A stretch of 64,000 nt of DNA, taken from IMG/VR virus record IMGVR_UViG_3300042992_000089. The stretch is one strand, 5' to 3'. A program made the position numbers and the translations under genes. This document shows positions 1 to 58,402 of this stretch, piece by piece. The notes under the pieces are model-generated. The model was not told the origin of the DNA. It saw only the letters and a program-made list of their open reading frames with translations, and ran no database searches. The DNA comes from a virus (Duplodnaviria > Heunggongvirae > Uroviricota > Caudoviricetes). Numbering within the stretch: position 1 is the first letter of the stretch; every line of letters starts with the position of its first letter.

Positions 1-2
1 CA

Positions 3-1688
3 TCTGGTTCATCAGCTACATCTGGTTCATCAGGCACTGGAGGAACTAGTGGATCTAGTGGCACATCAGGTAGCTCTGGTCTTGCTGGTGATAGATATGC
101 TACCTTCTCAACTACACCTTTTACTTTAGGTAATGCAGGTACAATAACAGTAGGAACTGGCTTAGCATACACAGTGGGTCAATCTGTGCTCATAGCAAAT
201 AATCAATTTAATTATCAACATAGCGTAGTTATTTCATATATTTCTGGAACAGGAGCTTTACAATTTGCAGCACCTGATGTATTAGTAGGATCTGGAACAT
301 ATTCTATCTGGTCTGTTAACCTTGTAGGTGCAGCAGGTGGTGATGGTTCTAGTGGAACATCAGGCTCTTCTGGTACCTCTGCTACAAGTGGGTCTTCTGG
401 CTCAAGTGGTAGTTCAGGTACAAGTGCTACTAGTGGATCTAGTGGAACTAATGGAAGCTCAGGAACATCTGCATCTTCAGGTACTTCTGGCTCATCAGGT
501 ACTGATGGTAGTTCTGGAACTGCTGGTACTTCTGGTACCTCTGGCACAGCTGGTTCTAATGGAACATCAGGAACAAATGGTACTGATGGTAGCAATGGTA
601 CATCTGGTACCTCTGGAACAAATGGTTCATCTGGAACTGATGGTTCATCAGGTACTAATGGATCTTCTGGAACAAGTGGAACGTCTGCATCAAGTGGAAC
701 GAGTGGAACAAGTGGTACAAGTGGAACTAATGGAACATCTGGATCGTCTGGTAAAGATGGTAGTACAGGTGCAGCTATTGCTAACTGGTATGGAGAGTTC
801 TCTAGTACACAAACACAACCATTGCTTGGAGTGAATACTCCTACAATATGGACGTTTGACACTACAAGTTTATCTTATGGTATTTCTGTAGTGGCTAGCT
901 CAAGAGTAACAGTTTCACATCCTGGTCAATATGAATTCATCTTCTCAGCACAGGTTAGTAAAACAACATCTCCAATTGCTGAGGTACAGATATGGCCTAG
1001 AATCAATGGCTTTGATGTAGCTAATTCAAATTCATTTATAGAAATACAGCAAACAGAGGTGGAATACATTCCTACTATTGCTTATATATTTAATCTACAA
1101 GCTAATGATTATGTACAGTTTGTCTTTGCATCTGCTGATTCAACAGTTCAACTTGTTGCTAAACCTGCACAAGTTTCTCCTTATGCATCTCCAGCTGCTC
1201 CTTCAATAATATTAACTGCTAAGCAAGTGGGTGTTGCTGTTTCAGGTACATCTGGTACAAGTGGAACAACTGGCACATCTGGTACTTCTGCATCAAGTGG
1301 AACTTCTGGATCTTCTGGAACAAGTGCTAGCTCAGGTACATCAGGTACAGATGGTAGCTCAGGCACTGCAGGTACTAGTGGTAGCACAGGTACATCAGGT
1401 ACTGCAGGTACGTCAGGATCATCTGGAACTTCAGCTAGCTCTGGTAGTGATGGATCATCTGGCACTAGTGGCACTGATGGAAGTTCTGGTACGAGTGGAA
1501 CGAGTGGAACTAGTGGAACTGATGGGTCTTCTGGAACAGCAGGAACAACAGGTACAGCAGGAACAACAGGAACTAGTGGTACTGTAGGTACATCTGGAAC
1601 ATCAACAACAAGTCTTGGTACAAGTGGAGATTCAATCACTATACCTCCTTCAGAAGGAACTACAACTACAACAACCACTGCACCTTAA
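3..1688 (+). CDS. Collagen-like fiber protein, 5' partial. Gly-X-Y tracts (X,Y = S/T/D/A/N) flank a central C1q/BclA-like jelly-roll domain; poly-Thr C-terminal tail.
   Basis: The open frame is unbroken from window position 3; the GTG at 174 in the ORF track is internal. It reads [16 protein letters not shown]... with Gly at every third residue. The central segment IANWYGEF...PGQYEFIFSAQV...NDYVQFVF...QVG has a C1q/TNF-like pattern that also closes the 16891 ORF. The protein ends TTTTTTTAP. Confidence 0.75.
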   Translation, partial: SGSSATSGSSGTGGTSGSSGTSGSSGLAGDRYATFSTTPFTLGNAGTITVGTGLAYTVGQSVLIANNQFNYQHSVVISYISGTGALQFAAPDVLVGSGTYSIWSVNLVGAAGGDGSSGTSGSSGTSATSGSSGSSGSSGTSATSGSSGTNGSSGTSASSGTSGSSGTDGSSGTAGTSGTSGTAGSNGTSGTNGTDGSNGTSGTSGTNGSSGTDGSSGTNGSSGTSGTSASSGTSGTSGTSGTNGTSGSSGKDGSTGAAIANWYGEFSSTQTQPLLGVNTPTIWTFDTTSLSYGISVVASSRVTVSHPGQYEFIFSAQVSKTTSPIAEVQIWPRINGFDVANSNSFIEIQQTEVEYIPTIAYIFNLQANDYVQFVFASADSTVQLVAKPAQVSPYASPAAPSIILTAKQVGVAVSGTSGTSGTTGTSGTSASSGTSGSSGTSASSGTSGTDGSSGTAGTSGSTGTSGTAGTSGSSGTSASSGSDGSSGTSGTDGSSGTSGTSGTSGTDGSSGTAGTTGTAGTTGTSGTVGTSGTSTTSLGTSGDSITIPPSEGTTTTTTTAP

Positions 1689-1712
1689 TAATAAATAAAT
1701 AAAGAAATAAAA

Positions 1713-4547
1713 ATGCCTTATAGTAACATTACAATAACCATTCAGACAGGTCTTACGTTTATTCCTGGACAATATGTCCAAGTGATACATGATGAGAACA
1801 ACTATATGTTTGGTCAAGTTGTATCATATAATTCAGGAACAGGACAATTCATATTTGAACCAGTTAGTTATTTAGGAGCTGGTACATTTACTAGTTGGAC
1901 TGTTGTAACTTCAGCTGCTCCTGGTGAGGATGGAACAAGTGGTACGTCTGGAACTGCTGGATCTAGTGGTTCAACAGGAACCTCAGGTTCTAGTGGAACT
2001 GATGGTAGTTCAGGAACAAGTGGAAGTGCAGGTACTAGTGGCACTGATGGCTCTAGTGGTACATCAGCATCTTCAGGAACAAGTGGATCTTCAGGAACTG
2101 ATGGTTCATCTGGAACATCTGCTACGTCTGGATCTACTGGTACAAGTGGATCGAGTGGATCAAGTGGTTCATCTGGTAGCTCAGGTACTTCTGCTTCTAG
2201 TGGATCTTCTGGCACATCTGGAACAGATGGATCTAGTGGTACATCAGGAACAGATGGCTCAAGTGGAACTGCAGGAACTACTGGTACATCAGGTACGAGT
2301 GGTAGTGATGGTTCTTCTGGTACAAGTGCAACAAGTGGCTCATCTGGTACGTCAGCTTCTAGTGGTTCCTCTGGAACTTCTGGTTCAAGTGGTAGTGCAG
2401 GTACTGCAGGTCTTTCTGGAGACTTATATAAAACAACATCAACTACATCATTAGCAATAGGAACAGGTACAAAGAATCTTACTGTTGGTACAGGTTTATC
2501 TTACACAGTGGGACAGGTTGTAGTTCTTGCTTATGATCTAAGCAATAGCATGGGTGGTGATATTATATCTTATAATTCTGGATCAGGTGCAATGTCTGTA
2601 AACGTAACTGCTACTACTGGTAGTGGTACTTATGCAGCATGGGATGTAAACTTAGGTGGTGCTGCTGGAGGTGATGGATCTTCAGGTACTAGTGGTGCAG
2701 ATGGTATTGATGGTAATCTTGCTATATGGAGATTCTCTACAAACACAGATACAAGCACAGACCCAGGTAGTGGATATTTTAGATTAAACTCTGCAACATG
2801 GGGAGCAAGCGTAACAGCAATTGCTATTGACAATCAATCATACTCTCCAAGCGTAAACTTTGGTACATACCTAGATACATTACAGAACAACTCTATTATA
2901 AAACTTGTATATGTTAGTGATAAGAATACATTCAAGATTTTAAGAATAGATGCTCTTCTTCCTAATCAAACAGGATTTGAAGAATTCACTGTAACACAAT
3001 TAGGATCAGGTGGTACAGATCCTAATGATAATGATCAATTCTATTTTGAATTTAATGGTATAAGTGGATCTTCTGGTACTTCAGGTACGAGTGGAACATC
3101 TGGCACTACAGGTACTAATGGTTCGTCTGGTACTGATGGTTCTTCAGGAACGTCAGGATCAAGTGGAACTTCAGCATCTAGTGGTACGTCAGCTTCCTCT
3201 GGTACATCAGGTACATCAGGCACTGATGGGTCTAGTGGAACATCTGCTTCTAGTGGATCAAGTGGTACTGATGGATCGTCTGGTACTTCTGGTACTGATG
3301 GCTCATCTGGTACAAGTGGATCGTCTGGCACTGATGGATCAAGTGGTACTAGTGGTACTTCTGCTTCTTCTGGAACTAGTGGTTCAAGTGGAACAGATGG
3401 CTCTAGTGGAACAAGTGGAACAACAGGAACAAGTGGAACATCAGGTTCTTCAGGTACTAATGGAAGTTCTGGTACATCAGCTTCAAGTGGTTCTTCTGGT
3501 ACAGATGGTAGTTCTGGAAAGAATGGATCATCTGGAACTAGTGCATCTAGTGGTACAAGTGGTACGAGTGGATCAAGTGGAAGTTCAGGAAGTAGTGGAA
3601 GCTCTGGAACTTCAGGATCTTCTGGTTCTTCTGGTTCTTCAGGCTCTTCTGGAAAGGCTGGTTCATCAGGTACATCTGGAGCCAATGGAGCTACAGGTCC
3701 TCAAGGTCCAACAGGTGGACCTGGCCCAACTGGACCACAAGGAGCAACTGGACCACAAGGTGCAACAGGTGGACCAGGCCCTACTGGTCCTCAAGGTGCA
3801 CAAGGACCACAAGGTGCAACAGGACCACAAGGACCTCAAGGTCCAGGTGGGCCTCCAGGACCAACAGGACCAACAGGACCACAAGGACCTACAGGTGTTG
3901 TTGGTGGATTGAGTCAAGGTGTACAAACATATGGTTCTGTTGTAACAACAACAGCTAATAATGGATGGGCTGGTTATCAAACAACAACAGCTGGTGTATA
4001 TCATCAATTGATGTCAGCTGGTGGTGATTATGGATTGTATTCTAATAGTTATAGCTGGGGACATTATTATAGTGCTGGTAACAATGGTTGGGGTATTCGT
4101 GGAAGCACCACTGTAAACTGGGCTGCTTGTACTACGAATGGTACAATGTATTATACATCAGAGTCTTATGCTACATATAATATGTTTGCTGTATCCTTTG
4201 TACCTACTTCTGATGTTAGACTTAAAGAAAACTTTGCTCCATTAGAAAACTCTCTTGATAAACTTAAAGGCTTACAAGGTGTATCTTATAACAGAATTGA
4301 AGATATTACTAAGAGAAGAGAGATTGGTTTTGTAGCACAAGAGGTTGAGAAAACATTGCCAGAGTTTGTACATTATCATGAAGATACAGATGTATATGGT
4401 ATTGCTTATGATAAGATGACAGCTTTACTTACAGAAGGTTTGAAAGAAGAAGATCAGAAAGTAGATGCTATAGAGGCAAGAGTCTTAACTTTAGAAGCCA
4501 AGATTGCAACATTAGAAACACGTTTAGGTAACTTAGAAAATATATAA
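1713..4547 (+). CDS. Tail fiber / collagen-like protein with a C-terminal intramolecular chaperone (peptidase S74-like) domain
   Basis: It has long GSS/GTS Gly-X-Y tracts and a true GPQ/GPT collagen tract ([25 protein letters not shown]...) at about 3690-3900. The C-terminal 112 aa, [29 protein letters not shown]...[15 protein letters not shown]...[10 protein letters not shown]...[18 protein letters not shown], match the self-cleaving endosialidase/tail-fiber chaperone signature (DxRLKxN ... GxIAQEV ... PE ... LLxEAIKEL ... coiled coil). A repeated 70-aa globular cassette sits at the N-terminus and again around residues 240-330. Confidence 0.8.
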
Positions 4548-4549
4548 TT

Positions 4550-4945
4550 ATGTCAAAAGAATATAGATGGGGGATACAGGATTTAAAGATAGCTAAGTCT
4601 GCTGATGGATTAACAAATGTAATAAAGAAAGTTTATTACAGAAGAAGTCTTAAGCAAATTGTAAATGATATACAACATGATGTTCATTACTTTGGTGAGT
4701 TTAAATTAGCTCCTGCAAATCCTACAAGCTTTACAGAATATCAAAATCTCACTCAGGAACAAATATTTACATGGTTAGATGCTATTCTTCCTGTAGATTT
4801 TATAAACTCTAGGTTGGATGATTACATGGCTAAGAAGCTTGAGAAAGATGAACTTGAAGCATTCCAACTTCCTAATCGACTAGTCACTGAAGAAGTAGAT
4901 CCTACAAAACTTCCAAACTCACCAGGAGGTCAGATAGGAGAATAA
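4550..4945 (+). CDS. Hypothetical protein; position suggests a fiber-associated or assembly protein
   Basis: Its ATG overlaps the fiber gene stop (TAATTATG). I see no recognisable motifs. Confidence 0.5.
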   Translation: MSKEYRWGIQDLKIAKSADGLTNVIKKVYYRRSLKQIVNDIQHDVHYFGEFKLAPANPTSFTEYQNLTQEQIFTWLDAILPVDFINSRLDDYMAKKLEKDELEAFQLPNRLVTEEVDPTKLPNSPGGQIGE

Positions 4946-4952
4946 AACAATT

Positions 4953-4984
4953 TTTGGAAAGGGTGCAAGGATTAACTATCTTTG
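4953..4984 (+). promoter_or_regulatory. Candidate Bacteroidota-type promoter: TTTG -33-like element plus a TATCTTTG -7 box
   Basis: TATCTTTG at 4977-4984 lies 18 nt upstream of the ATG at 5003. TTTG at 4953-4956 lies about 21 nt further upstream. There is no SD. Confidence 0.35.
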
Positions 4985-5002
4985 TACCCTTAATTATTTA
5001 AT

Positions 5003-5605
5003 ATGAAAAACAAAACATTAGTCTTTCCTCAAAAAGAAATAGATGTTCAAAACTATTATTGGTTTAAACATGGATTTGATGATAATGCATTGAATCAAAT
5101 TTATCAAGATGTTGCCACTCTTCCTTTTATGGATGCTGGGACAGGAGATGATAATATTCAGGATAAGAAGGTAAGATCATCAAAGATAAAATGGATTCCC
5201 CAAGAAGATAAGTGGGAGTGGGTATATGCAAGATTAATGGGAATGATTGTCGAAGCAAATAAATCTTTATGGAACTTTGATTTACATAGTGTATTAGATA
5301 ATATTCAATATACAGAATATCATGCTGAGGATGGTGGACATTATGATTGGCATCAAGATCTTGGACCAGGTTGGTTATCAAGAAGAAAGATAAGCATCAC
5401 TGTACAATTATCTGATCCTAGTGAATATGAAGGAGGTGAATTAGAATATTGGAAAGGTGGTCCACCTGAAAATGCAGATAAAGCACCTAAAGGAAAAGGA
5501 GTTGTATTTATATTTCCTTCATACATGATGCACAGAGTGACACCAGTTACAAAGGGAGTGAGAAGATCATTGGTATTGTGGATAGGAGGAATTCCTTTTA
5601 AATAG
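5003..5605 (+). CDS. 2OG-Fe(II) oxygenase, prolyl 4-hydroxylase-like (P4Hc-like)
   Basis: It carries the HxD...H...RxS triad in canonical spacing: HYDWHQD, GGELEYW, PSYMMHRVTPVTKG, RRSLVLWI. Its size (200 aa) and layout resemble the small viral/bacterial P4H-like enzymes. Confidence 0.7.
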   Translation: MKNKTLVFPQKEIDVQNYYWFKHGFDDNALNQIYQDVATLPFMDAGTGDDNIQDKKVRSSKIKWIPQEDKWEWVYARLMGMIVEANKSLWNFDLHSVLDNIQYTEYHAEDGGHYDWHQDLGPGWLSRRKISITVQLSDPSEYEGGELEYWKGGPPENADKAPKGKGVVFIFPSYMMHRVTPVTKGVRRSLVLWIGGIPFK

Positions 5606-6689
5606 GAAGTTTAGACATAACATCATTTACTGAAATACTCTTATGACATTCAAAATGTCTAGGAGTATTTTCATTTTCAGGACACCACATCCAGTCTCCT
5701 TTGTTAAACTTGAACATAGGATTGTTCCAACATCCATTACATACATCCTTATTAGTTATGCGTATACAGTTGTTTTGAAACTCATGGTCTTCTGTTGTGA
5801 AGTTAGATATCATAACTCCTTGCTTACCTAATCCCCAATTGAGCCAACTGATTCCACTAGATAATCCTATGTATGTATCTGCATACCACAGATAGTTCAT
5901 TACATTCTCAAGAGATGTATCTTCTAACTTCTCTGCTCCATAGTCATCTGCTTCCTGAGATAGTTCAAACACTCTATATCCTTTAATCTTTAGTGTTTGT
6001 ATTAGTTCTGGCCAGTAATACCAGTGCTTACACTGAGCTGTAGATCTAGTGGAGATACAAATATATTCATTAACTGCAGGTCTTTCTTTAGGAGTGAATG
6101 CAATCCTAGGCTGTAACTCTTCATGCTCTAAGCACAAGATATTACTAGCTGCCTGTTGTAATGGTATAGTGGCAGGATGTACAGGTTCTTTTGATTCATC
6201 CCAATACCAGCCAATCTCCATCATTGCAATTATATTAGGAACAGACTGTCCTCTTCCTACAAACTCTAATTCAGGATATACATCTTTGAATAGTTCATTC
6301 CTGAACGTGGATACAATAACATGACAATCATACACTTCTTTAAACTTTAAACAATAGGGCATCCAGGCAATGCTATCTCCTAATGATTTACTTTCAAAAG
6401 ATATAAACACTCTCTTTCCTTTCACCTCATCTAATATGTTGATTTGCTTAACTGTACGTCCTTGGTATTTGACAAAGATGGCTATGTCAGATAGATACTT
6501 TCTATTAAGTCTAGCCCATGCTCCTGGCTTTAGTTTTGTTTCATAGATAGTTATGTGTTGATCTGTAAACATACCATCCACCTTACCTTTTCTATCTACA
6601 AACTGTATATCATACTCTCTATCTTTTCCTTCGTCTCCTGTTAGTTCAAAGTATAAACCATTAACATGGTGTAAGTTATATGTTATCAT
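5598..6689 (-). CDS. Glycosyltransferase, TibC/BAHT-like (autotransporter O-heptosyltransferase-like, GT9-related)
   Basis: It has the SLGDSIAWMPY...FKEVYDCHV motif typical of the TibC/AAH heptosyltransferase family, and a C-terminal Cys-rich CNGCWNNP...CPENE...CHK segment. Confidence 0.55.
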   Translation of the reverse strand: MITYNLHHVNGLYFELTGDEGKDREYDIQFVDRKGKVDGMFTDQHITIYETKLKPGAWARLNRKYLSDIAIFVKYQGRTVKQINILDEVKGKRVFISFESKSLGDSIAWMPYCLKFKEVYDCHVIVSTFRNELFKDVYPELEFVGRGQSVPNIIAMMEIGWYWDESKEPVHPATIPLQQAASNILCLEHEELQPRIAFTPKERPAVNEYICISTRSTAQCKHWYYWPELIQTLKIKGYRVFELSQEADDYGAEKLEDTSLENVMNYLWYADTYIGLSSGISWLNWGLGKQGVMISNFTTEDHEFQNNCIRITNKDVCNGCWNNPMFKFNKGDWMWCPENENTPRHFECHKSISVNDVMSKLPI

Positions 6690-7264
6690 TTCTCTGTATT
6701 AAAAAAGAATGTTTGAAATAGTCTACCATCTTGTAGATCTTTGCCAAAGTAATCCAAAGATACATGGAATAAGTCACCTCTATATAAAATAAGTCTGTTA
6801 TATACATTACCTATTCTATCTACCATCTCCCACTTTGTATAATCCATACCTTCAACATGTGGTGCTGCAGTTTTTGTTTCTTCTTCTGTATGTTCAGTAT
6901 ATATCCAATTCTTAAGACCTGTTTCTTTGTGTCTAAAGATACCTGTGCCTGAAGACAAAGGAGCATCAGGAGTAAGATAGCACACACCTGCCCAATTTGT
7001 AGTGCCATCACTGTGAATCCATGATCTATCTTGTGCTGTTGTGTATTGGAAAGCACCTGAATTATCATCTCCCCACCAAACTACATCACCTGCAAAGGGT
7101 CTAATATTATCTTGTATTATTTGTTTAATACTATCATTTAGAAAAGACTTAGTTCTTCTACCAGGATAGTTACCAGACTCACCAAATTCTTGACTCATAG
7201 CAAACGCTCTCACCTCATCTGGGTTATTGTAAAAGTCTGATATGGATAACATTTCTACTCTCAT
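6686..7264 (-). CDS. Hypothetical protein, possibly a cupin/2OG-oxygenase-like fold
   Basis: WIHSDG (HxD) and a later LFHVS His give a weak resemblance. Its start overlaps the neighbour in an ATGA arrangement. Confidence 0.3.
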   Translation of the reverse strand: MRVEMLSISDFYNNPDEVRAFAMSQEFGESGNYPGRRTKSFLNDSIKQIIQDNIRPFAGDVVWWGDDNSGAFQYTTAQDRSWIHSDGTTNWAGVCYLTPDAPLSSGTGIFRHKETGLKNWIYTEHTEEETKTAAPHVEGMDYTKWEMVDRIGNVYNRLILYRGDLFHVSLDYFGKDLQDGRLFQTFFFNTEK

Positions 7265-8283
7265 AAGTTGTTGTATGCGTTTATATATAATTGTCTTGTT
7301 CTGTCTGATGTATATCCTTCATTAATCTTCAGTATGTTATAATAATACTTAGCCAAGATTTTAGCTACATTGTCCCAGCTATATTCTTCACGTCTATCTA
7401 ATATAGCCTGTCTACGTTCTTCATAGTTGTGTATTACATTTACAATACCATCTACCACAGACTCTGTTGTAATTTTATTAATCACATGCATACCAGGGAT
7501 AGGTTTACTACCTCTATAAGTTCCCACAATAGGAACTCCACATGCTGTAGCTTCCATCAATGTTAGATTAGGATGTCCTGCTTCTAGCATAGATGGATGT
7601 ACAAAGATTGTACTAGATCTGTATAACTCTCTAGTCTCATCATCTGTAGGGTTTGTTAACTTTAAAGTTAACTTTGGATAATCCAATAGCTCAGAATGTA
7701 TCTCAAAGAACTTGTTGTTATCAGGATGCCCAGCTATTGTAATAGGTAGGTTTAATAACTTAGCTGCTTCTATACCAAATCTAAATCCTTTTCTATCATA
7801 TCCAGAATCACCTGCTAATCCATTGTTAGCTAACATTAATAAAGAGTGTGGTCTTGGTGCATAGTCAGGAGTAAAGAATTCTGTATTAGCCCCATGTGGT
7901 AGATAGAATAATTTATCTGTAGCATCAAAGTAATCTATAAGATATTCAGCATGCGTAAAAGATATAATGCTATGCTTCATAGCCTCTAGGTTTTGCTTAA
8001 ACACCCAGCTATCTTTACCATACCATTCTGTGTGGTGATCATGTAGAGAGTATACATAAGGTATACCTTTATCTCTACAATATAAAGCTTGATTAGCTAA
8101 ATGAGCATGAACAATTGTGTTAGGCCATTTCTCTAAGTCATTCATATATTTAACATCTACAACATGTCCTTGTTTCTCAAGGGCAACCTTATATTCCCAT
8201 GTAAGCCTTTCAACAGCTCCCCATCCATTTGGTGGTATGGTGATTAGTCCTGTTGCTACATGTACTGATTTTATTGGTTCCAT
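7261..8283 (-). CDS. Glycosyltransferase family 4 (GT-B fold)
   Basis: The C-terminal MEATACGVPIVGT matches the GT4 E-x7-E/ACG motif, and the N-terminal domain is typical of GT4. Confidence 0.7.
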   Translation of the reverse strand: MEPIKSVHVATGLITIPPNGWGAVERLTWEYKVALEKQGHVVDVKYMNDLEKWPNTIVHAHLANQALYCRDKGIPYVYSLHDHHTEWYGKDSWVFKQNLEAMKHSIISFTHAEYLIDYFDATDKLFYLPHGANTEFFTPDYAPRPHSLLMLANNGLAGDSGYDRKGFRFGIEAAKLLNLPITIAGHPDNNKFFEIHSELLDYPKLTLKLTNPTDDETRELYRSSTIFVHPSMLEAGHPNLTLMEATACGVPIVGTYRGSKPIPGMHVINKITTESVVDGIVNVIHNYEERRQAILDRREEYSWDNVAKILAKYYYNILKINEGYTSDRTRQLYINAYNNL

Positions 8284-8945
8284 TTGGTTCTAAATTTAAT
8301 TTCATCAATTCTAAACTTCCTTTCTTTCTCTTCACTCATACCTCCCACATTTAATGTTTCCATATGACAGACAATAGAATGTCTTACAAGAGCATGTTTA
8401 ATACCAGCCTGCTTTAGTCTTTCTGCATAGTCGTTGTCTTGATAGTACATATCAAACAACTCATCAAATGGTAAGATCTTATCTAGTGCAGACTTCTTAA
8501 TCACTGTACACCAACCTTGTAATGCTTCTGTCACAGCATAAGATTCATGATACTTACTATCAGTTCCTACAAAATGATTAGGGAACCATCTAGCATATAA
8601 CAATGGGTCTTTAGGAGAGAATGCTTCTATGTCTTCTCTGTAGTCATGTACCTTCATCATCTCTGAGAACCACCATCTTTCATAAGCTACATCATCATTA
8701 GATATAACCACCCAATCACCTTGGCAATATGTAAATGCTATGTTTAAAAACTTGTTGTAGTTAAAAGAATTCTCAGGATGTATATAGTTATGAATACGTG
8801 CATACCTATTTGGATCTTGTGTACCTGAGTCTACTAATTGCACACGAAACCTAAAGTCAATCTCACTATCATGCAATGTATCTATTGTACGTTGTGTCAG
8901 AGCCACATTAGTGCTATCTGTTAATATGATTACATCTATTGTCAT
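8271..8945 (-). CDS. Glycosyltransferase, GT-A fold (GT2-like)
   Basis: VVISNDDVAY is a DxD-like motif in a roughly 220-aa GT-A sized protein. Confidence 0.5.
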   Translation of the reverse strand: MTIDVIILTDSTNVALTQRTIDTLHDSEIDFRFRVQLVDSGTQDPNRYARIHNYIHPENSFNYNKFLNIAFTYCQGDWVVISNDDVAYERWWFSEMMKVHDYREDIEAFSPKDPLLYARWFPNHFVGTDSKYHESYAVTEALQGWCTVIKKSALDKILPFDELFDMYYQDNDYAERLKQAGIKHALVRHSIVCHMETLNVGGMSEEKERKFRIDEIKFRTKWNQ

Positions 8946-11605
8946 TTCTTTCTGAATGATTTATGTGTATTGTCTATTAAAGAAAATCCATCTGCTTGGG
9001 TAGTAAGTCTTTTCTTAACCATTCCCATTTGAGGCCCTGCAAAGATACTATTAAAATACATATCAGCAGCATCCCATTTGTGTGTTCTTAAGTTGTTCTT
9101 TAAAAACTTAGCTGCCTCTTTTGGAAACATAATAGATTGTAAACCAATGATATGATTGGTTACATACATTTCATTATTGATATCTTTAACAATAGGTGAT
9201 TGTGGCCAGCCATGTTCTAGTGTATCAGCATCTCCAAAAGACATATAGTTTATGTTGTTTGGTACCAATAAGTGTGCACATTCCTCAACTTTTCGTACGA
9301 AAAAGTGTATGTCTGTCTCAATGATACAATCTCCTTCACACACCATTAAGAAGTCACAATCATGAAACTCTGTTAAGATGGCATTCTTAAATGCTTCGTA
9401 GCATCCATAATGTGCTGGGGTAAGTGCAGTGCCATACTGTTGAATTTGTTGCTCATTGAAGAGTTCCATTGAAACACAATCTGGTCTGAGACAGTTATGC
9501 TTGGGTGGTAATGACTTATAGGGCTCGTTAAACTGTATGACATATTCCCAGCCATGGTCTTTGACTCTTTCAAGGGATGCTCTACTTTGTTGTTCTCTTT
9601 CATCATTTAATGTGGTTTGTATATGAACTAATTTAATCTTAGGTCTTTCGTTCTTCCATTCAAACTTTCCTGTGTGTTGGTACTTATGTAAGTTATCTTT
9701 GGTCAGCTTAAACTCTTCCAACTTATATTGAACATCTCCATCATAAAAATCCATTTTAATATCTATAGGATCTCCTTTGAATTCAAACTGATAAACAAGT
9801 TCATGGTTCTTAGCTGGTATTATTCTTTTCCACATGTAATCTTCAATAGATACATAGATGTTTCTATAGTCTCTGTTATATGTAAAGAAGTAGAACACAT
9901 AATTGTTTGGTTTTCCAACAACAGGGATGATAGAATAATACTCACTATTTGATGCTACACCTAATCCACTGTGAACTAACAAGGTATCCTTATCATTAGT
10001 AACTAACTGTATATCATTTGGGTTGAAGCTAAAGATAACCTTTGACAAATAGTCTTCTAGATAGTTCTCACATCTTCTTCTCTTACACACTTCGTTCCAT
10101 TCTTCTGGTGTACGCACATCATCAAACTCTTTCAAGAAGAAGTCTGTGTCAAACATAATACCATTGGTCTGAATTCCCTTACCCTGTGGAGTGGGTAGGG
10201 TAGCAGCATATAACTTTTTATCTGTTCTGAATGCATCATTTACTGCAGGGATATCTCTAGGATCTAATACAACATCATATGTAGTATAGAAGAACCTCTT
10301 AAACCCAAGCTCTTTAGCAACCTTAGCTGCATTAAATATATTAGTTAAGACAGTCAATGACTGGTTACTATTCTTCAATCCATTGATGTTGATCTCAGCA
10401 AAGTAGTCTGGTCTGTCATTGTAAAACCTGGTGTAATAACTGTGATGAGTCAAAGGATTATGCACATCGTATATATAACAATCCACCATGTTTTGAATGT
10501 CTATATCTACAGGATAGTGAGACACTAGTATAATCTTTCTACCCAATGGTTTAAGACTATTGATAGTATCCTTAGTCCATTGAATCCTATCCTTAATGTT
10601 TGGATAGGTGCCTAAGATGATACACTCTTCTTCCATTACATCTAAGTTTAATTTTTTGATAATATTGGTAGCATCACTACCAAGATCTCCAGTTAAATAA
10701 ACCATGTTCTCTTCATTGTTATATTTGTTACAGTATACATCTAGATTATACATCACTTTGATCAAGTCATCATATTCCATGGCTTCTTTAATAGCAATAG
10801 GATTTAACTCCTTGTTACCTCTATCTCCCTTTGATGGAAAGAAGAATACATCACATGCTTTTAAGAAGTCACTTACATCATCACGCTCTCCCCAGACAAC
10901 ACAGTTGTTTGGTTTATTAGCCATCAGTGGCTTCCAATAATTCTCAAAGTTACCTGCTTGGTTACCTAGGAAGTGAAACTTCACCTTATAGTTCTTAAGT
11001 CTTTCTGCTAGTTGAAATGCATAAGCTTGATTCTTTCTAGGTGTAAATAGTCCTACAGTTACAAAGTGTTTGTATTCAGGATCTAAGCCATAGTCTTTTT
11101 GTCTTTCTACTTTATTTCTAACCTTCTTATCAATAGGATATTCAATTACTTCTGTAGGTACATCTAAGTCTATGTATTGGAATGAGTTGTAAGAGCTAAC
11201 AAATATAAACTTGTCAGGCATCCATCTCTTGTGCTTAGGATTGAATGAGCTGTCATGCGTAGTCTCTGATATCTTCCAAGTTCTATTATCTGAATAGATG
11301 AATGCAGAAAGCTTGTCGTCCATGAACATCTCAGGAAACTCTTCCATCACTATAACATCTGGATTGAACTGTTCAATAATTCCAGACAGTTCACCATACT
11401 TATCTTCTCCTAAAGAATGGAAGTTAACTCCTTCTGTAAGCATTTGAATGATCTTGTTTCGCTGTACAACAAATGACCATGCTAGAAATGAATACTCTAC
11501 CACCTTAATTTCAAAGTAATCTTTTAACAGTTCCACTTTGTTTACTGTTACCTGAGGAGCCCCTCCTGTTGATAGGTGAGGAGTGATTATTAATAGCTTT
11601 TTCAT
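8942..11605 (-). CDS. Large multidomain glycosyltransferase: N-terminal GT4 module plus additional C-terminal transferase-like domains
   Basis: The N-terminus MKKLLIITPHLSTGGAPQ plus FFFPSKGDRGNKELNPIAIKEAMEY matches GT4 N- and C-motifs. The C-terminal 300 aa (GCYEAF...FLMVCEGDCII) look like a second nucleotide-sugar transferase domain, possibly GT25-like, but this is unverified. Confidence 0.6.
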   Translation of the reverse strand: MKKLLIITPHLSTGGAPQVTVNKVELLKDYFEIKVVEYSFLAWSFVVQRNKIIQMLTEGVNFHSLGEDKYGELSGIIEQFNPDVIVMEEFPEMFMDDKLSAFIYSDNRTWKISETTHDSSFNPKHKRWMPDKFIFVSSYNSFQYIDLDVPTEVIEYPIDKKVRNKVERQKDYGLDPEYKHFVTVGLFTPRKNQAYAFQLAERLKNYKVKFHFLGNQAGNFENYWKPLMANKPNNCVVWGERDDVSDFLKACDVFFFPSKGDRGNKELNPIAIKEAMEYDDLIKVMYNLDVYCNKYNNEENMVYLTGDLGSDATNIIKKLNLDVMEEECIILGTYPNIKDRIQWTKDTINSLKPLGRKIILVSHYPVDIDIQNMVDCYIYDVHNPLTHHSYYTRFYNDRPDYFAEININGLKNSNQSLTVLTNIFNAAKVAKELGFKRFFYTTYDVVLDPRDIPAVNDAFRTDKKLYAATLPTPQGKGIQTNGIMFDTDFFLKEFDDVRTPEEWNEVCKRRRCENYLEDYLSKVIFSFNPNDIQLVTNDKDTLLVHSGLGVASNSEYYSIIPVVGKPNNYVFYFFTYNRDYRNIYVSIEDYMWKRIIPAKNHELVYQFEFKGDPIDIKMDFYDGDVQYKLEEFKLTKDNLHKYQHTGKFEWKNERPKIKLVHIQTTLNDEREQQSRASLERVKDHGWEYVIQFNEPYKSLPPKHNCLRPDCVSMELFNEQQIQQYGTALTPAHYGCYEAFKNAILTEFHDCDFLMVCEGDCIIETDIHFFVRKVEECAHLLVPNNINYMSFGDADTLEHGWPQSPIVKDINNEMYVTNHIIGLQSIMFPKEAAKFLKNNLRTHKWDAADMYFNSIFAGPQMGMVKKRLTTQADGFSLIDNTHKSFRKK

Positions 11606-12301
11606 TTATGTAAATCTCTTTTTGTATGGATTATCAATTGTCTGATCTTCTACTGTAATATTTAAAAAGTTAAAACCTTGTAATGGACCACTAAGATACC
11701 CTATCTTGCCTGAAAAAAAAGTATTAAATGCAAGGCTTATTCTAGTTTTATCATCACTTGTTGTTGGAACACTATGTTCTGTAGTAGATGGGAATAGAAC
11801 AATATCTCCTTTATTTACAGGGAAATAAGCTTCAACACAAGTATACATGTTTTGTTCTTTTGCCTGTATTTGTAAATTATTAGGCAATGCTCTTCCAAAC
11901 ATTATCTTATCTGTATTCTTATCTGCATTGAAATATAAACATCCACTAATTATACTGTTTGGATGATGGTGCTGATGATGTGATTGTTCTTTCTTTGTGT
12001 AATTAAACCAAGACTGAGTTATAGATAATTTAAGTCCTTCTGGATTTATAGGATTATACACGTTTATCAAGTAATCATTAAGAATGGACTCAATGAATAG
12101 TTTTACATTACTAAGTTTAGGATTGTTTAAAACATACAAATTGTGTGTTGTAGAGTTTGATGAATTTCTAAATACATCACTTTCATACTCATATGCACAT
12201 TCTATTTCTTCATTAGTAAAGTCTCTATTGATGTTATTTAATAAAACAGGGATAGGGAAGATTGGTACTATTACTCCTCCTTGGTTTTGTTGTTCTGACA
12301 T
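11606..12301 (-). CDS. 2OG-Fe(II) oxygenase (TIGR02466-like family common in marine phages)
   Basis: The pattern HHQHHHPNSIISGCLYF ... GDIVLFPS ... H ... RISLAFN matches the conserved H..HPxS..SG.YY / FPS..xH / RISISFN signature of that family. Confidence 0.6.
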   Translation of the reverse strand: MSEQQNQGGVIVPIFPIPVLLNNINRDFTNEEIECAYEYESDVFRNSSNSTTHNLYVLNNPKLSNVKLFIESILNDYLINVYNPINPEGLKLSITQSWFNYTKKEQSHHQHHHPNSIISGCLYFNADKNTDKIMFGRALPNNLQIQAKEQNMYTCVEAYFPVNKGDIVLFPSTTEHSVPTTSDDKTRISLAFNTFFSGKIGYLSGPLQGFNFLNITVEDQTIDNPYKKRFT

Positions 12302-12302
12302 A

Positions 12303-13229
12303 TTATAAATTATTATTGATTGCGTGAATTACTTGTTCTACAGATGGATGACATTCAAAAGTTTCTTTCTTCTCTAAGCATCCTATTAATGGTTGTACAT
12401 AATCTATTGTTGGCCAATACTCAAGAGCATATTTCATATTAGAATTACAATGTAATCCACAACCTCCTCTTACATATATGTGCTTGCCTTCTTGTCTATG
12501 TGGTGTACGAAACTCTGGATTGATAGGAGATCCTAACTCAACAATGTCAGTTTTGGTTGTGCCTGCTAGATGTAGAATACCTGAGTCCATGGTGATAACA
12601 ACCTTAGCATTGTTAATGAGATGCCAAGTTTGAGCGATGGATGTCTTATTCATAAGGTTTATAACGTTATCGTCCATCTTATGTACAGGTTTGTTTACAT
12701 TAAAGAATCCTGTCTCAGAACTATCCTTACCAACTGCCACCACTTTGTAGCCCCATTTATTTAATTCATCAACTAGTTTAAGCCAGTTCTCTTGTGACCA
12801 AGTTCTATTGGGCCAGCTATTAACAGGATGTATCACAGCATATCTACCCTCTACAGAAACATTAGGTTCTTCTGTAGGCTGATAGAAACATTCTAATTCA
12901 TCTTTTCCAAGCATAAATCCTAGATGTATAGCATGGAACTGCCTAATATCCATCATGTTGTGCTTCATCTCTATACCACGCTCATCTTTCTTACCCACTA
13001 GATAGAATGAATTATGTATAATGTAATTACTTTGTATGTACGTCATGTCTATAGAGCTAGCTTTGTAGCTCTTTTCTACATAAGGGTTCATCTTAAACAA
13101 CTCAGGCATCTGAGAGATGACTATAATCTTTCTTTGATACGCATCATGAAGCTTTTTAATAGTGGGGGTGGCACAGATAAGATCACCCAATCCATTACAT
13201 TCTTCTAGATTTAAACAAACTGGTTTCAT
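12303..13229 (-). CDS. Glycosyltransferase family 9 (ADP-heptose:acceptor heptosyltransferase-like)
   Basis: GLGDLICATPTIKKL, WPNRTWSQENWLKLVDEL..GYKVVAVG and VITMDSGILHLAG are the classical RfaC/RfaF-type GT9 motifs. The track ORF begins at a TTG at 13391 with a junk N-terminus. I place the start at the ATG at 13227-13229 (MKPVCLNLEEC...). Confidence 0.75.
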   Translation of the reverse strand: MKPVCLNLEECNGLGDLICATPTIKKLHDAYQRKIIVISQMPELFKMNPYVEKSYKASSIDMTYIQSNYIIHNSFYLVGKKDERGIEMKHNMMDIRQFHAIHLGFMLGKDELECFYQPTEEPNVSVEGRYAVIHPVNSWPNRTWSQENWLKLVDELNKWGYKVVAVGKDSSETGFFNVNKPVHKMDDNVINLMNKTSIAQTWHLINNAKVVITMDSGILHLAGTTKTDIVELGSPINPEFRTPHRQEGKHIYVRGGCGLHCNSNMKYALEYWPTIDYVQPLIGCLEKKETFECHPSVEQVIHAINNNL

Positions 13230-13246
13230 CTGTTGGTTATTTAAAA

Positions 13247-13263
13247 CAAAGTTACTATATTTG
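13247..13263. promoter_or_regulatory. Divergent candidate promoter pair (TAnnTTTG boxes on both strands)
   Basis: TAACTTTG on the minus strand at 13254..13247 lies 17 nt upstream of the GT9 ATG. TATATTTG on the plus strand at 13256..13263 lies 24 nt upstream of the ATG at 13288. This is a strand-switch point. Confidence 0.4.
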
Positions 13264-13287
13264 TTGGAAATAAAAAACATTTTTACT

Positions 13288-13656
13288 ATGAAAATTGAAG
13301 TTTCTGTGGGGGAAGTTGTAGACAAATGGACTATACTTTCTATCAAAGCTCTGAACATTACAGACAAAGACAAACTAGTTAATGTTTTCAAAGAGAAAAC
13401 TTATCTAAATGATGCTGTACATCCTGAGATATTACATGATCCTTTGACAGACATGTTGCTTGAAGTTAATAAAGCTCTTTGGAAAGTGGAAGATCTTATA
13501 AGAGACTTTGAAAGAGCTAATAGTTTTGGAGAAGAGTTTATTGATTTAGCTAGATCTGTCTACAAGTTGAATGATAAAAGAGCACATATTAAAAAAGAAA
13601 TTAATATTAAGTATGGGTCTGACTTTGTAGAGGAGAAATCCTACCAGCCCTACTAA
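13288..13656 (+). CDS. Hypothetical protein
   Basis: This is an ATG-initiated ORF. The track version starts at a GTG at 13162 that overlaps the divergent promoter and is probably an over-extension. Confidence 0.5.
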   Translation: MKIEVSVGEVVDKWTILSIKALNITDKDKLVNVFKEKTYLNDAVHPEILHDPLTDMLLEVNKALWKVEDLIRDFERANSFGEEFIDLARSVYKLNDKRAHIKKEINIKYGSDFVEEKSYQPY

Positions 13657-16890: not shown

Positions 16891-17859
16891 ATGGCTATAC
16901 CAAGCAGACAGATAGGATGGGGAACAGAAGAAAACCTTTTATGGCAAATTTCTAAGCAATTAGAAGCTATAAATGGTGTTGCATATAACGCAGGTGGTGG
17001 TGGTGGCACTGGTACCTCTGGTACAAGTGGTGCTGCTGGTTTATCAGGAACATCAGGAACTAGTGGTGTTGTAGGTACGTCTGGAACTTCAGGTCTTTCT
17101 GGTACATCTGGTATCAGTGGTACCAATGGTATCAGTGGTACTAATGGAGTTAGTGGAACAAGTGGTACTTCAGGAATTGATGGAACTTCTGGTATAGATG
17201 GTACTAGTGGAATAAATGGAACAGCTGGAACTTCAGGTGATAATGGTTCATCAGGAACAAGTGGCGAAACTGGTACTTCTGGTATAGATGGTACTTCAGG
17301 AACATCAGGTGAATCAGGTACTTCAGGAGTAAGTGGTACAGCTGGAACAGCTGGTATTGCAGGAACTGCAGGAACTAGTGGAGTTAATGGGGTTGTTGGT
17401 GGTTATTTAGGATCTTTCTATGATACTACAAGTCAAACAGGTCTTGCAGGAGCTGTTCTTACAATGGGTCTTACTAATTCAGATTCTTGGAATAATGGTG
17501 TTTCACTTGTTTCTGGTAATCAAATAACAATAGCTAATCCTGGTGTATATAATATACAATTTAGTGCACAGATGGTAAAAAATGCTGGTAACACTGCAAC
17601 GCATGCACACATTTGGCTATCACAAAATGGTACAAATGTACCTACTAGTGCTTCTCAATTAGGATTTCCTTCTAACTCTGTGTATGTTGTAGCAGCTTGG
17701 AATTTCTTTTTCAAGACAACAGTGGCTAATGAATATGTACAGCTTAAATGGGAAATAAATAGTAATGTAAACGATGCAATAGTTATCCAATCAGCTGCAG
17801 CTACAGGAAATGTTCCTGCTATCCCTGGTCTAATTGTAACAGTAAATCAAGTAGGATAA
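16891..17859 (+). CDS. Collagen-like protein with a C-terminal C1q/BclA-like jelly-roll domain
   Basis: The N-terminal module is [25 protein letters not shown], followed by [13 protein letters not shown]... Gly-X-Y repeats. The C-terminal domain, [12 protein letters not shown]...[13 protein letters not shown]...NEYVQLKW...QVG, is homologous to the central domain of the first fiber ORF and has a C1q-like pattern. Confidence 0.8.
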
Positions 17860-56044: not shown

Positions 56045-56363
56045 GAAAACTACATACGTAAATACAGAGCTTGAATGGGCAGAAGTACAGCTAAAGTCTT
56101 GGAAAGCATACGTTGATGCTAATCCACTACATGAATTGAAAGATAGGATTGAGTGGAAACCTACAGCTAAAGGAGGAATGTTACCTATGGTCATAGCCTC
56201 TATTGAAGCTCAAGGTAAGTTTGTCCAAGAGACAATGAAAAACTACCTAGCATTGGTAGAAGTGGTAGATAAGTTAAGAAACATGGAAGAAGCTAAGGTG
56301 GAAGTGAGAGGAAAAGGTGAATTATCAGGAGCTGCTGCTGAGTTCTTAGCAAATAGAAAATGA
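56031..56363 (+). CDS. Hypothetical protein immediately upstream of terL (small terminase candidate by position only)
   Basis: The N-terminus is MATIKKTTYV, and its stop overlaps the terL ATG (ATGA). Confidence 0.35.
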   Translation: MATIKKTTYVNTELEWAEVQLKSWKAYVDANPLHELKDRIEWKPTAKGGMLPMVIASIEAQGKFVQETMKNYLALVEVVDKLRNMEEAKVEVRGKGELSGAAAEFLANRK

Positions 56364-58402
56364 TAGAACTACAAAATATAGATTACAAAGACTGGTTTAT
56401 AAATCAGAAGCGTATTCCTGATAAAGACTCTCAGGAGTGTAAGCCATTCTTTGACTTTCACAGAGAGCTATGTTTAAATGGAGCCATGATGGGGGGTGTT
56501 TATATCAACCCCTTTTTGTATTGGCACCTAAACATATGGCATACAGAGGTAGATGTAATAGATGAAAGAGGAAGGATTGCACAGAAATATGCCAATCCTT
56601 TTTTAAGAGATAATGAATGGCTTGTGACAAATGAAATTGACAGAGCTCAACAAGAAAAGAGGGGCTTAGTCATTCTAGGTATTAGACGTTTTGCCAAGTC
56701 AGTTTTAGAAGCATCCTATATTGCATGGGGTGCAACCTTTGATGAAAACAGTCAGAATATCATAGCAGGCTTAAATGCCCCAGATATAAAACTGATTACT
56801 GATAAGATTGACAAAGGATTGAATTTCATTCCTGAGTATTGGAGATGGCAGAGAATTGAGGACAACTGGAAGAACCAAGTGACTCTAGGTATAAAGACCA
56901 AGTCTGGTGAACGTATCCCATTCTCTTCCATTCTAATACGTAACCTTGATGAAGGTAATAATGAAGAGGCCATTGCAGGTACAAAACCACGTAAATTAAT
57001 TATAGATGAAATTGGTAAAGGAAACTTTCTTAGAGGCTTACAGGCTGCTATTCCAGGTTTCACTACACCCTATGGCTGGGGATGTAGCCCCATACTTACT
57101 GGGACTGGTGGGGACATGAAGAAATTCATGGATGCAAAGAGCTTAATGTTTGACGTAGACAACTTTAACTTCCTTACATATAATAATAGTAAAGATGACA
57201 AACGTATACATGGATTGTTCATCTCTCATAAATATAGAATGGAGGCAAAGGATGATTCTACACTAGGAGCATATTTGAATGAACCATCCACCTCAGACTT
57301 ACACAATGTAAAAATGCTTGTAAGTGATGAAGAAAAGGCAACACAGATTACTAATGATAATTTAGAAAGACTTAAGAAAGCTGGAGATAGAATAGCCTAT
57401 CTAAAAGAAAAGATGTACTATCCTCAGGAAGTGGATGACATTTTCTTAAATGAGGATACTAATATATTTGATATTGACAGTGCTAAGAGACAGAAGTTTA
57501 GATTGTTGCAACAAGAAAGAACAGGAACTCCTGTTATCTTGTTTAATGATGGAGAGAAGATAGCTCATGAGTTTACAGATAAATTACCCATCTCTAACTT
57601 CCCTCTAAAAAACTCAGACCTAAAAGAAGCACCTGTTGTTATATATGAATTCCCTGTGGATAATCCTCCTTATGGATTGTATGTAGCAGGAGTCGATCCA
57701 TATAGACAAGGTAAGTCTGCATATTCAAGTTCACTTGGATCTGTATACATATATAAAAGGATGCATGAAATTTCAGGTGAGAAGTATCAAGATATGTTCG
57801 TAGCTTCGTATTGTGCAAGACCTGATAAGAAAGAAACTTGGGAAGAACAAGCTAGACTTCTTATTAAATACTATAACGCTAGAACTTTGTGTGAGAATGA
57901 TGATATATCATTTATTGAATATATGAAGAGTAAAGGAGATGCACACTACTTAGAGAAACAACCTGAATGGCTTAAAGAGATTGTTCCTAATACCACTGTA
58001 AAAAGAGATTATGGAATTCATCGTTCAAGTCAGAAGATAATTGACTATCTTCACACCTGTTTAAAGAAGTATATGGAAGCTCCAATCTTTGTAGAGAAGA
58101 ATGACGCAGGTGAAGTGATTAGAGAAGTCTTGGGTGTGAGTAAGATATTTGATCCTGTATTGCTTGAAGAGATTATTCAATACAATGATCAAGGTAACTT
58201 TGATAGAATTATTGCTGCAGAGTTAGCAATAGCACAAGCATTAAAGATGGACCCAATAATGGGTAAGATAGGTGGTACATCAGATGAGAGAGTAGCTTCT
58301 ATGTTCAATAAGAAAAGAGGCAATATACTTTTCACTGAAGCTAGGAACAACATGTTTGGACAATCAAGAAATAAATATAAACGAAATAAATTGTTTTCAT
58401 AA
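56360..58402 (+). CDS. terL: Terminase large subunit
   Basis: GLVILGIRRFAKS is a deviant Walker A, PRKLIIDEIG is Walker B, and the C-terminal half has the terminase nuclease layout. Its size (680 aa) and position before the portal also fit. Confidence 0.8.
   Translation: MIELQNIDYKDWFINQKRIPDKDSQECKPFFDFHRELCLNGAMMGGVYINPFLYWHLNIWHTEVDVIDERGRIAQKYANPFLRDNEWLVTNEIDRAQQEKRGLVILGIRRFAKSVLEASYIAWGATFDENSQNIIAGLNAPDIKLITDKIDKGLNFIPEYWRWQRIEDNWKNQVTLGIKTKSGERIPFSSILIRNLDEGNNEEAIAGTKPRKLIIDEIGKGNFLRGLQAAIPGFTTPYGWGCSPILTGTGGDMKKFMDAKSLMFDVDNFNFLTYNNSKDDKRIHGLFISHKYRMEAKDDSTLGAYLNEPSTSDLHNVKMLVSDEEKATQITNDNLERLKKAGDRIAYLKEKMYYPQEVDDIFLNEDTNIFDIDSAKRQKFRLLQQERTGTPVILFNDGEKIAHEFTDKLPISNFPLKNSDLKEAPVVIYEFPVDNPPYGLYVAGVDPYRQGKSAYSSSLGSVYIYKRMHEISGEKYQDMFVASYCARPDKKETWEEQARLLIKYYNARTLCENDDISFIEYMKSKGDAHYLEKQPEWLKEIVPNTTVKRDYGIHRSSQKIIDYLHTCLKKYMEAPIFVEKNDAGEVIREVLGVSKIFDPVLLEEIIQYNDQGNFDRIIAAELAIAQALKMDPIMGKIGGTSDERVASMFNKKRGNILFTEARNNMFGQSRNKYKRNKLFS

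Follow-up and report, generated by a model that had tools for sequence, protein, structure and literature searches.

A window of 64,000 nucleotides from an uncultured virus of the Caudoviricetes (IMG/VR record IMGVR_UViG_3300042992_000089) was analyzed for a fiber gene that occupies positions 1713 to 4547 on the forward strand and encodes a 944-amino-acid (aa) precursor of 90.0 kDa. A preliminary description, made from the letters alone, had placed a self-cleaving, peptidase S74-like intramolecular chaperone at positions 4209 to 4547, at the C terminus of a collagen-containing tail fiber. In the list of open reading frames (ORFs), the fiber ORF was the only one to span this interval, and the other frames contained no overlapping ORF of at least 50 aa. 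The interval comprises codons 833 to 944 (S833 to I944), with Ser833 encoded by TCT at 4209-4211, followed by the TAA stop codon at 4545-4547. The encoded 112 aa have a calculated mass of 12.77 kDa, in agreement with the fragment of roughly 12 kDa that had been anticipated, and the quoted peptides and heptad-patterned C-terminal helix were all found in this ORF. No second S74 domain was found within the 64-kb window, leaving the copy in the fiber gene as the only one. The gene and its parts are as follows.

1713..4547, + strand: fiber gene, with an N-terminal domain, a collagen-like block, two globular domains, a second collagen-like block, a tip, and an intramolecular chaperone (ORF list; Pfam Collagen and Peptidase_S74; PHROG tail-fiber families; orthologues of the same layout in related loci L001, L085, L088, L089, and L090)

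1713..1922, + strand: N-terminal domain (aa 1-70), first copy of a repeat of about 60 aa and presumed virion-attachment end (pairwise alignment)

1923..2426, + strand: collagen-like block 1 (aa 71-238), Ser/Thr-rich G-X-Y triplets (GTS/GSS) with in-register Gly-to-Ala triplets (ASS/ATS) (run analysis; Pfam Collagen)

2427..3056, + strand: central non-collagen region (aa 239-448), containing the second copy of the ~60-aa repeat, a run of 7 G-X-Y triplets (aa 316-336), and a globular segment of 112 aa; kept in the L001 orthologue

3057..3911, + strand: collagen-like block 2 (aa 449-733), with a Pro-rich distal part (aa 659-733; 3687-3911) containing eight GPQ and six GPT triplets (run analysis; Pfam Collagen)

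3912..4208, + strand: non-collagen tip of 99 aa (aa 734-832), presumed receptor-binding domain (alignment; substitution rates; KVP40-type C termini)

4206..4211, + strand: predicted scissile bond Thr832|Ser833 (invariant Ser833; alignment to known cleavage serines; T5 pb1 precedent, PMC4690869)

4209..4373, + strand: Peptidase_S74 core (aa 833-887) with Ser833, Asp834, Arg836, Lys838 (4224-4226), and Tyr859 (4287-4289) (PF13884)

4374..4544, + strand: C-terminal half of the chaperone (aa 888-944), a beta-hairpin and then a long helix with heptads (4461-4544), presumed to form a trimeric coiled coil (structure model; heptad spacing; Foldseek)

The identity of the C-terminal domain was addressed with profile searches. 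Pfam Peptidase_S74 (PF13884, "chaperone of endosialidase"), the hidden Markov model that had been suggested as a check, matched aa 833 to 887 over profile positions 1 to 58 of 58 with an E value of 1.1e-17, beginning exactly at Ser833, the first residue of the interval. The score was 64.5 bits (gathering score, 22). More than 25 PHROG tail-fiber families aligned by their own C termini to the C terminus of the fiber (best, phrog_5668, E = 4e-27); by tblastn, 1,895 GenBank phage records proved to encode the C-terminal module, among them those of KVP40-type, T5-like, and RB49/T2-type gp37 fibers. When 1.84 billion cluster representatives were scanned exhaustively with HMMER, 47,117 matched at E ≤ 1e-3, and 3,031 of these reached E ≤ 1e-10; among the 150 best representatives, the S74 match was C-terminal in nearly all. 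By these sequence criteria, S833-I944 is a C-terminal intramolecular chaperone of the Peptidase_S74/endosialidase-chaperone family.

Residue conservation was assessed in an alignment of the fiber with 17 database homologues (18 sequences, from 93% down to 28% identity). S833, D834, and K838 were invariant, R836 was nearly so, and Tyr859, within the GVSY motif, was invariant and aligned with Y615 of the eukaryotic protein MyRF, a residue that lines the cleavage site (PMC8326128). A profile built from this alignment matched S16 gp37 (PDB 6F45, E = 2.3e-16), a putative tail fiber (8JOV, 2e-9), and the ICA domain of MyRF (7DC3, 2.8e-8), with the motif S-D-x-R-[LI]-K in register across all three. 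Ser833 thereby aligned with the cleavage serine of S16 gp37, of 8JOV, and of MyRF, where it is replaced in 7DC3 (S587A). Both S587A and K592A abolish cleavage of MyRF, and the two residues are equivalent to S911 and K916 of endoNF (PMC8326128); phage T5 pb1 is cleaved between Thr1263 and Ser1264, with Lys1269 downstream, and S1264A stops cleavage (PMC4690869). In a sample of distant viral relatives, 78 of 80 carried an S[DNE]xx-hydrophobic-K motif 87 to 144 aa before the stop codon (median, 100; 112 here), and the Ser/Lys motif was present in 121 of the 150 cluster representatives. The serine preceding DVRLK, which the preliminary description had singled out as the cleavage residue, thus has the invariance and the spacing to Lys838 of the established Ser-Lys dyad, as judged from the alignment. 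By analogy with T5, where the same Thr-Ser pair is found, the predicted scissile bond is Thr832|Ser833, and S833-I944 is expected to be released by autoproteolysis.

The fold was examined with an AlphaFold2 (AF2) monomer model of aa 730 to 944 calculated from the 18-sequence alignment. Block means of the predicted local distance difference test score (pLDDT) were mostly 75 to 95 in the chaperone part, which was modeled as two short helices (H106-111 and H118-123, model numbering), a beta-hairpin (E127-131/E140-144), a short helix (H146-152), a second beta-hairpin (E157-160/E165-168), and a C-terminal helix (H170-214), an order that matches descriptions of the T5 and K1F chaperones. A Foldseek search of the PDB with this model returned the MyRF ICA domain (7DC3; probability 1.0, TM score 0.60 on the target, root mean square deviation of 3.9 Å over 119 columns) and the K1F "Intramolecular Chaperone" (3GW6; probability 0.92); there were no further significant PDB matches. 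The C-terminal helix is 45 residues long (model residues 170 to 214, pLDDT 90 to 95), and four a/d heptads could be read from its sequence (V917, I920, V924, L927, I931, L934, L938, and L941). Given a monomer predictor, its assembly into a trimeric coiled coil is presumed.

Upstream of the chaperone, the protein matched Pfam Collagen (PF01391) with E = 5.7e-52. A run analysis counted 144 G-X-Y triplets, the longest uninterrupted run being 40 (aa 614-733). Among the residues of the last 25 triplets (aa 659-733) are 19 Pro, 9 Gln, and 10 Thr, with Pro mainly at X and Gln or Thr at Y, so that "bona fide GPQ helix" was a fair description of this distal run. From its composition, the Pro-rich block is a plausible stable triple helix; the stability of a triple helix in the Pro-free GSS/GTS blocks with their Gly-to-Ala triplets is uncertain. 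Interruptions of the Ser/Thr-rich blocks were nearly all single in-register Gly-to-Ala triplets (ASS/ATS at 2067-2075, 2121-2129, 2193-2201, 3246-3254, 3363-3371, 3480-3488, and 3543-3551) that leave the G-X-Y phase unbroken, a pattern also kept in the L001 orthologue.

A domain of about 60 aa occurs three times in this region of the window, at 1731-1904 (aa 7-64), at 2475-2648 (aa 255-312), and at about 138-317 in the upstream ORF, each copy lying directly N-terminal to a G-X-Y block. The copies aligned at z = 16 to 20 against shuffles (N-terminal domain versus aa 239-315 and versus the upstream ORF), with the consensus ...TVGTGL.YTVGQ.V......N......SY.SG.G........GSGTY..W.VNL. This domain, which had no match in PHROG, may serve as a registration or trimerization module for collagen-like segments. 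The central domain of the fiber, searched by itself, had no PHROG match either.

Orthologues with the same domain order were rebuilt from contigs. They measure 1,622 aa in L001, 945 aa in L085 and L086, 941 aa in L088, and at least 825 aa in L089 and L090, and bear 90 to 293 G-X-Y triplets. The difference between the fiber at 1713-4547 and that at L001 1669-6537 (944 versus 1,622 aa; 144 versus 293 triplets) is due entirely to expansion of GSS/GTS blocks; among close relatives, fiber length appears from these sequences to vary by repeat number.

Selection differed between the tip and the chaperone. When the window was compared with L085, L002 fiber B (L002B), and L087 fiber B (L087B), the ratio of nonsynonymous to synonymous substitution rates (dN/dS; NG86 method on segments of about 100 codons, hence rough estimates) was 0.8 to 1.0 in the tip and, in the same pairs, 0.16 to 0.37 in the chaperone, which is under purifying selection. 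Within the tip, which is homologous to the C termini of KVP40-type fibers (33% identity), the hypervariable part spans aa ~734 to 795, and the ~38 aa that lead up to Ser833 are conserved. This pattern fits a conserved folding and cleavage module beside a diversifying receptor-binding tip, with aa ~734 to 795 as the likely host-range determinant. The module of tip and chaperone was found on collagen shafts in the window, L001, L085, L088, and P0009, and at 62 to 64% identity on shafts free of G-X-Y in P0010 (L002 fiber B), P0011, and L087 fiber B. Since the module rides on both collagen and non-collagen shafts, the partner of the chaperone is the tip rather than the collagen.

Overall, we interpret the gene as encoding the precursor of a trimeric virion fiber with a self-cleaving C-terminal S74 chaperone, and assign this mechanism as a whole a probability of about 0.87. 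It is modeled on homology with K1F endoNF, T5 pb1, and MyRF. After translation, the four heptads of the C-terminal helix would align three chains as a trimeric coiled coil, while the alpha/beta part and its beta-hairpins would hold the 99-residue tip (aa 734-832) as it folds into an intertwined trimer, and the collagen-like shaft could then close like a zipper, starting from this C-terminal nucleus. In the assembled trimer, Ser833, activated by Lys838 in a Ser-Lys dyad, would attack the Thr832-Ser833 bond. The predicted products are a fragment of 12.8 kDa and a mature chain of 832 residues (77.3 kDa) whose new C terminus is the distal receptor-binding tip. For the fiber of an uncultured large phage, this fixes the gene model and the predicted mature product, 832 aa ending in ...FVPT.

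Several observations weigh against this interpretation. Trimerization, cleavage, and the sequence of folding steps are carried over by analogy with the model systems. A single-sequence search of the PDB gave a weak match (E = 4e-4), and neither 3GW6 nor T5 pb1 was retrieved from the PDB by sequence, even with the family profile; 3GW6 was recovered by fold only. The tip had a pLDDT below 50 in the monomer model, built on a shallow alignment, with beta-strands predicted at model residues 54 to 97. An upstream gating arginine (R897 in endoNF; R1250 in T5, 14 residues before the serine) had no obvious equivalent, there being no arginine within 30 residues upstream of S833; the nearest upstream arginine, R796 (position −37), is substituted in P0010 and P0011, and counterparts of Arg1250 and Asp1239, which form the folding sensor and oxyanion hole of T5 pb1, were not found. 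MyRF operates without an upstream gating arginine, which is not a universal requirement (PMC8326128). Finally, no recognizable tail or baseplate genes lie near the fiber gene.

This last point bears on the virion position of the fiber, which the preliminary description had called a tail fiber; that it is a fiber stands, and we place it most probably on the tail. The same chaperone mechanism could instead belong to a head, neck, or whisker-type fiber, like the neck appendages of GA-1 and phi29 or the capsid-penton fibers of polinton-like viruses, a placement that we regard as unlikely. In its favor, the genes neighboring the fiber gave no tail or baseplate match, neither the N-terminal domain that would anchor the fiber nor the tip, each searched in isolation, matched any PHROG, and the gene sits amid glycosyltransferase and oxygenase genes about 50 kb from terminase and portal. 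S74 domains are documented on neck appendages (PMC4690869) and on capsid fibers (PMC12220804), and phrog_38766, annotated as "virion structural protein, head and packaging," also matched the collagen part. The strongest C-terminal matches, however, were tail-fiber families and distal subunits of long tail fibers (S16 gp37, RB49 gp37, KVP40, and T5-like pb1), and the fast-evolving tip suits receptor binding. In addition, Flavobacterium phage immuto encodes DUF7936, the family encoded directly downstream of our fiber, within its tail module, where the tail sheath gene follows after a few hundred bases.

A second alternative concerns the client of the chaperone, which could be mainly the collagen-like triple helix and not the tip, with the S74 domain acting as a nucleator in the manner of a procollagen C-propeptide. 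Collagen helices do need a trimerization nucleus, the coiled coil of the chaperone is the only recognizable C-terminal one, and the combination of collagen and S74 recurs in independent lineages. We nevertheless consider this decidedly unlikely. Besides the occurrence of tip and chaperone on G-X-Y-free shafts in P0010, P0011, and L087B, the helix ends 99 non-collagen residues short of the cleavage site, two other collagen-like genes of the window have no S74 domain, and collagen was found in only 1 of 150 and 6 of 80 S74 proteins. The tip and chaperone on collagen shafts of 941 to 1622 aa and on non-collagen shafts form a natural series suited to the question of whether S74 nucleates collagen.

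The domain might also have degenerated into a permanent, non-cleaving trimerization knob. In favor of such a knob, the sensor arginine of the endoNF/T5 type could not be identified, and the cleavage is a prediction from homology; yet the invariance of Ser833, Asp834, and Lys838 and the conservation of Arg836 and Tyr859 would be unexpected had catalysis been lost. The extreme C-terminal position and the family-typical length of the fragment likewise favor cleavage, and MyRF cleaves without a stalk arginine, so that we judge a non-cleaving knob very improbable. Chance or low-complexity resemblance, which might be suspected because the coiled-coil tail alone drew spurious weak matches (Tropomyosin, TRPM_tetra, and DUF7310, all sub-threshold in Pfam and confined to the C-terminal helix) and because homologue fragments have been named "prefoldin" by metagenome annotators, is refuted by concurring profile, fold, and residue-level evidence, the PF13884 match (E = 1e-17) lying in the non-coiled-coil aa 833-887.

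The self-cleaving precursor proposed here resembles several described systems. The K1F endosialidase endoNF (PDB 3GW6), the founding member of Peptidase_S74, shares with it the Pfam family, the fold (probability 0.92, as above), and the C-terminal position; its dyad S911/K916 corresponds to S833/K838 (PMC8326128), and its released fragment of about 12 to 15 kDa is comparable to the one predicted here (PMC4690869). Its client differs: in endoNF it is a stalk with a triple beta-helix fold, situated beneath a sialidase, and Arg897 gates cleavage, whereas here a non-enzymatic tip of 99 aa lies below a collagen-like shaft. In T5 pb1, T1263|S1264 and K1269 at +5 correspond to T832|S833 and K838, and the order of the AF2 elements agrees with a chaperone in which the alpha/beta part, bearing beta-hairpin "tentacles," sits beside a trimeric C-terminal coiled coil. 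T5-like fibers were among the tblastn matches at 30% identity, but the pb1 chaperone is longer (133 versus 112 aa), and its bullet-shaped receptor domain is much larger than the tip here.

The best solved relative by sequence was the S16/T2-type gp37 (6F45; E value as above), with an alignment that reached into the tip (profile positions 79 to 219). In S16 gp37, as here, a chaperone-type C-terminal domain follows the distal tip, but there is no collagen shaft. In T2 and S16, a second protein, the adhesin gp38, attaches to the tip of gp37 after processing. The best structural match, the MyRF ICA domain (7DC3), has the Ser-Lys dyad and the conserved Tyr in common with the fiber, and its coiled coil drives trimerization; MyRF is, however, a eukaryotic transcription factor of the endoplasmic reticulum membrane with an internal ICA domain followed by a transmembrane segment, whereas the domain here is C-terminal on a virion fiber.

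The union of collagen and S74 had been called an unusual combination. It is indeed a minority architecture, with eight or more consecutive G-X-Y triplets in 1 of the 150 nearest S74 cluster representatives and in 6 of the 80 IMG/VR loci (7.5%), one of which, L003, is the best-matching locus and has 41 triplets; fiber A of L002 is a further case. It is also recurrent and not new, so that the word was overstated: the phrog_8745 profile contains a collagen segment (1382-1493) and a terminal intramolecular chaperone (1697-1799), and fibers with collagen repeats and a C-terminal S74 domain have been published for polinton-like viruses (PMC12220804) and for Tal extensions of Streptococcus thermophilus phages (PMC9437275). 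The thin proximal part of T5 pb1 has also been suggested to adopt a collagen fold (PMC4690869). The polinton-like, Tal, and phrog_8745 fibers share with the fiber here the succession of collagen-like repeats, distal domain, and terminal S74 domain. Compared with those, the present fiber differs in its tip, contains two globular domains in its interior, and has unusually long Pro-free Ser/Thr-rich G-X-Y blocks, joined by a short Pro-rich block at the distal end; none of those relatives is close to it (at most 37% identity). With about 47,000 representative clusters, an established mechanism, and a collagen fusion already reported, the chaperone itself adds little biology.

Downstream of the fiber gene lie a small gene and a block of about 8 kb (5003-13391) beside collagen-like fiber genes, with the following features.

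4550..4945, + strand: DUF7936 gene, 131 aa (Pfam PF25590, E = 1.4e-11), possible accessory

5003..5605, + strand: first gene of the block, a 2-oxoglutarate (2OG)-Fe(II) oxygenase of the prolyl 4-hydroxylase (P4H) type (PF13640)

5598..13391, − strand: remainder of the block, which in all holds two 2OG-Fe(II) oxygenases, DUF6445, and four glycosyltransferases (GTs), namely GT1, GT2, a GT1 domain in an 887-aa protein, and GT9

11606..12301, − strand: 2OG-Fe(II) oxygenase (PF13759)

The ATG of the DUF7936 gene lies 2 nt past the stop codon of the fiber gene (TAA-TT-ATG), and DUF7936 was found in the same downstream position in L001, L002, and L085 to L090 (L001, 6540-6935; L002, 3543-3902 and 3916-4266; L085, L086, and L088, 10001-10396; L087, 10001-10366 and 10385-10738). 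Counts of S74 fibers and DUF7936 genes stood at 1:1 or 2:2 in 9 of 9 related loci. Among the distant viral loci, a DUF7936 ORF occurred on the fiber strand in 15 of 80 and abutted an S74 fiber in 9 of 80. Strict one-to-one pairing was rejected, as 24 of the 80 loci in this wider sample had two S74 fibers and no DUF7936, and L033 (three fibers, two DUF7936) and L038 (three and one) also broke it; DUF7936 is a frequent abutting neighbor of S74 fibers. Its AF2 model (pLDDT 71.5) consists of a three-stranded beta-meander and two helices. The PDB yielded neither a sequence match nor a significant fold match (best E = 0.1), the BFVD matches of the model all belonged to DUF7936, with Cyanophage S-TIM5 and Prochlorococcus phage P-SSM2 among their sources, and no mention of DUF7936 was found in the literature. 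In L084, gp043 of Flavobacterium phage vB_FspM_immuto_2-6A (NC_055915.1; 6992-7408), annotated as "lysozyme," matched DUF7936 in Pfam (E = 1.1e-26) and no lysozyme family; from its sequence, the annotation is probably wrong.

The modification-enzyme block was syntenic in the collagen-bearing loci L085, L086, L088, and L089; L002 has 2OG and GT9 genes, and the block was absent from L087, the one related locus with collagen-free fibers, an association of block and collagen that represents three independent lineages only. One conceivable reading is a phage collagen-maturation pathway, in which the 2OG oxygenases and GTs would hydroxylate and/or glycosylate the Pro/Ser/Thr-rich G-X-Y shafts and so stabilize marginal Pro-free helices, S74 would be the equivalent of the procollagen C-propeptide, nucleating the trimer at the C terminus and then being removed, and DUF7936 would be a fiber-specific accessory. 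We consider such a pathway quite unlikely; host surface glycans are an equally plausible target of the block genes, which might also have nothing to do with the fiber. The block and DUF7936 nevertheless constitute testable leads.

The wider window encodes rIIA/rIIB, UvsX, ribonucleotide reductase, DNA polymerase, a terminase large subunit (TerL), and a portal protein, and derives from a large uncultured double-stranded DNA phage. TerL (56360-58402) shares 40% identity with that of Leptolyngbya phage Lbo-JY46 and 32% with those of Cellulophaga phages phi17:2 and phi4:1. A megablast search of positions 1713 to 6700 against GenBank phages returned only a 203-bp repeat match, and thus no close cultured relative; related contigs of 26 to 71 kb were present in several ENA/JGI metagenomes. 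Two further collagen-like genes of the window, without S74, lie on the forward strand. That at 1-1688 is open from the left edge of the window, has a poly-Thr tail, and is listed with a GTG start at 174 that is not real, and that at 16891-17859 has 46 uninterrupted triplets. In L085, very large proteins of 3,870 aa and 1,619 aa are encoded upstream of the collagen-like fiber genes (1-4899, + strand), a region whose equivalent falls outside the window; the 1,619-aa protein had no Pfam or PHROG match, and both may be further fiber or structural components.

Collagen-coding DNA keeps several frames open on both strands, and automatic gene callers fragment and mislabel the genes that it carries. 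Homologues retrieved from databases were mostly truncated because assemblies and gene callers break within such DNA. Public gene calls at L001 1824-5935 lie on the wrong strand, with a 178-aa remnant named "terminase large subunit-like," and P0001, P0003, P0012, and P0013 are fiber remnants of 121 to 214 aa misnamed "phage terminase large subunit-like protein" or "chaperonin cofactor prefoldin."

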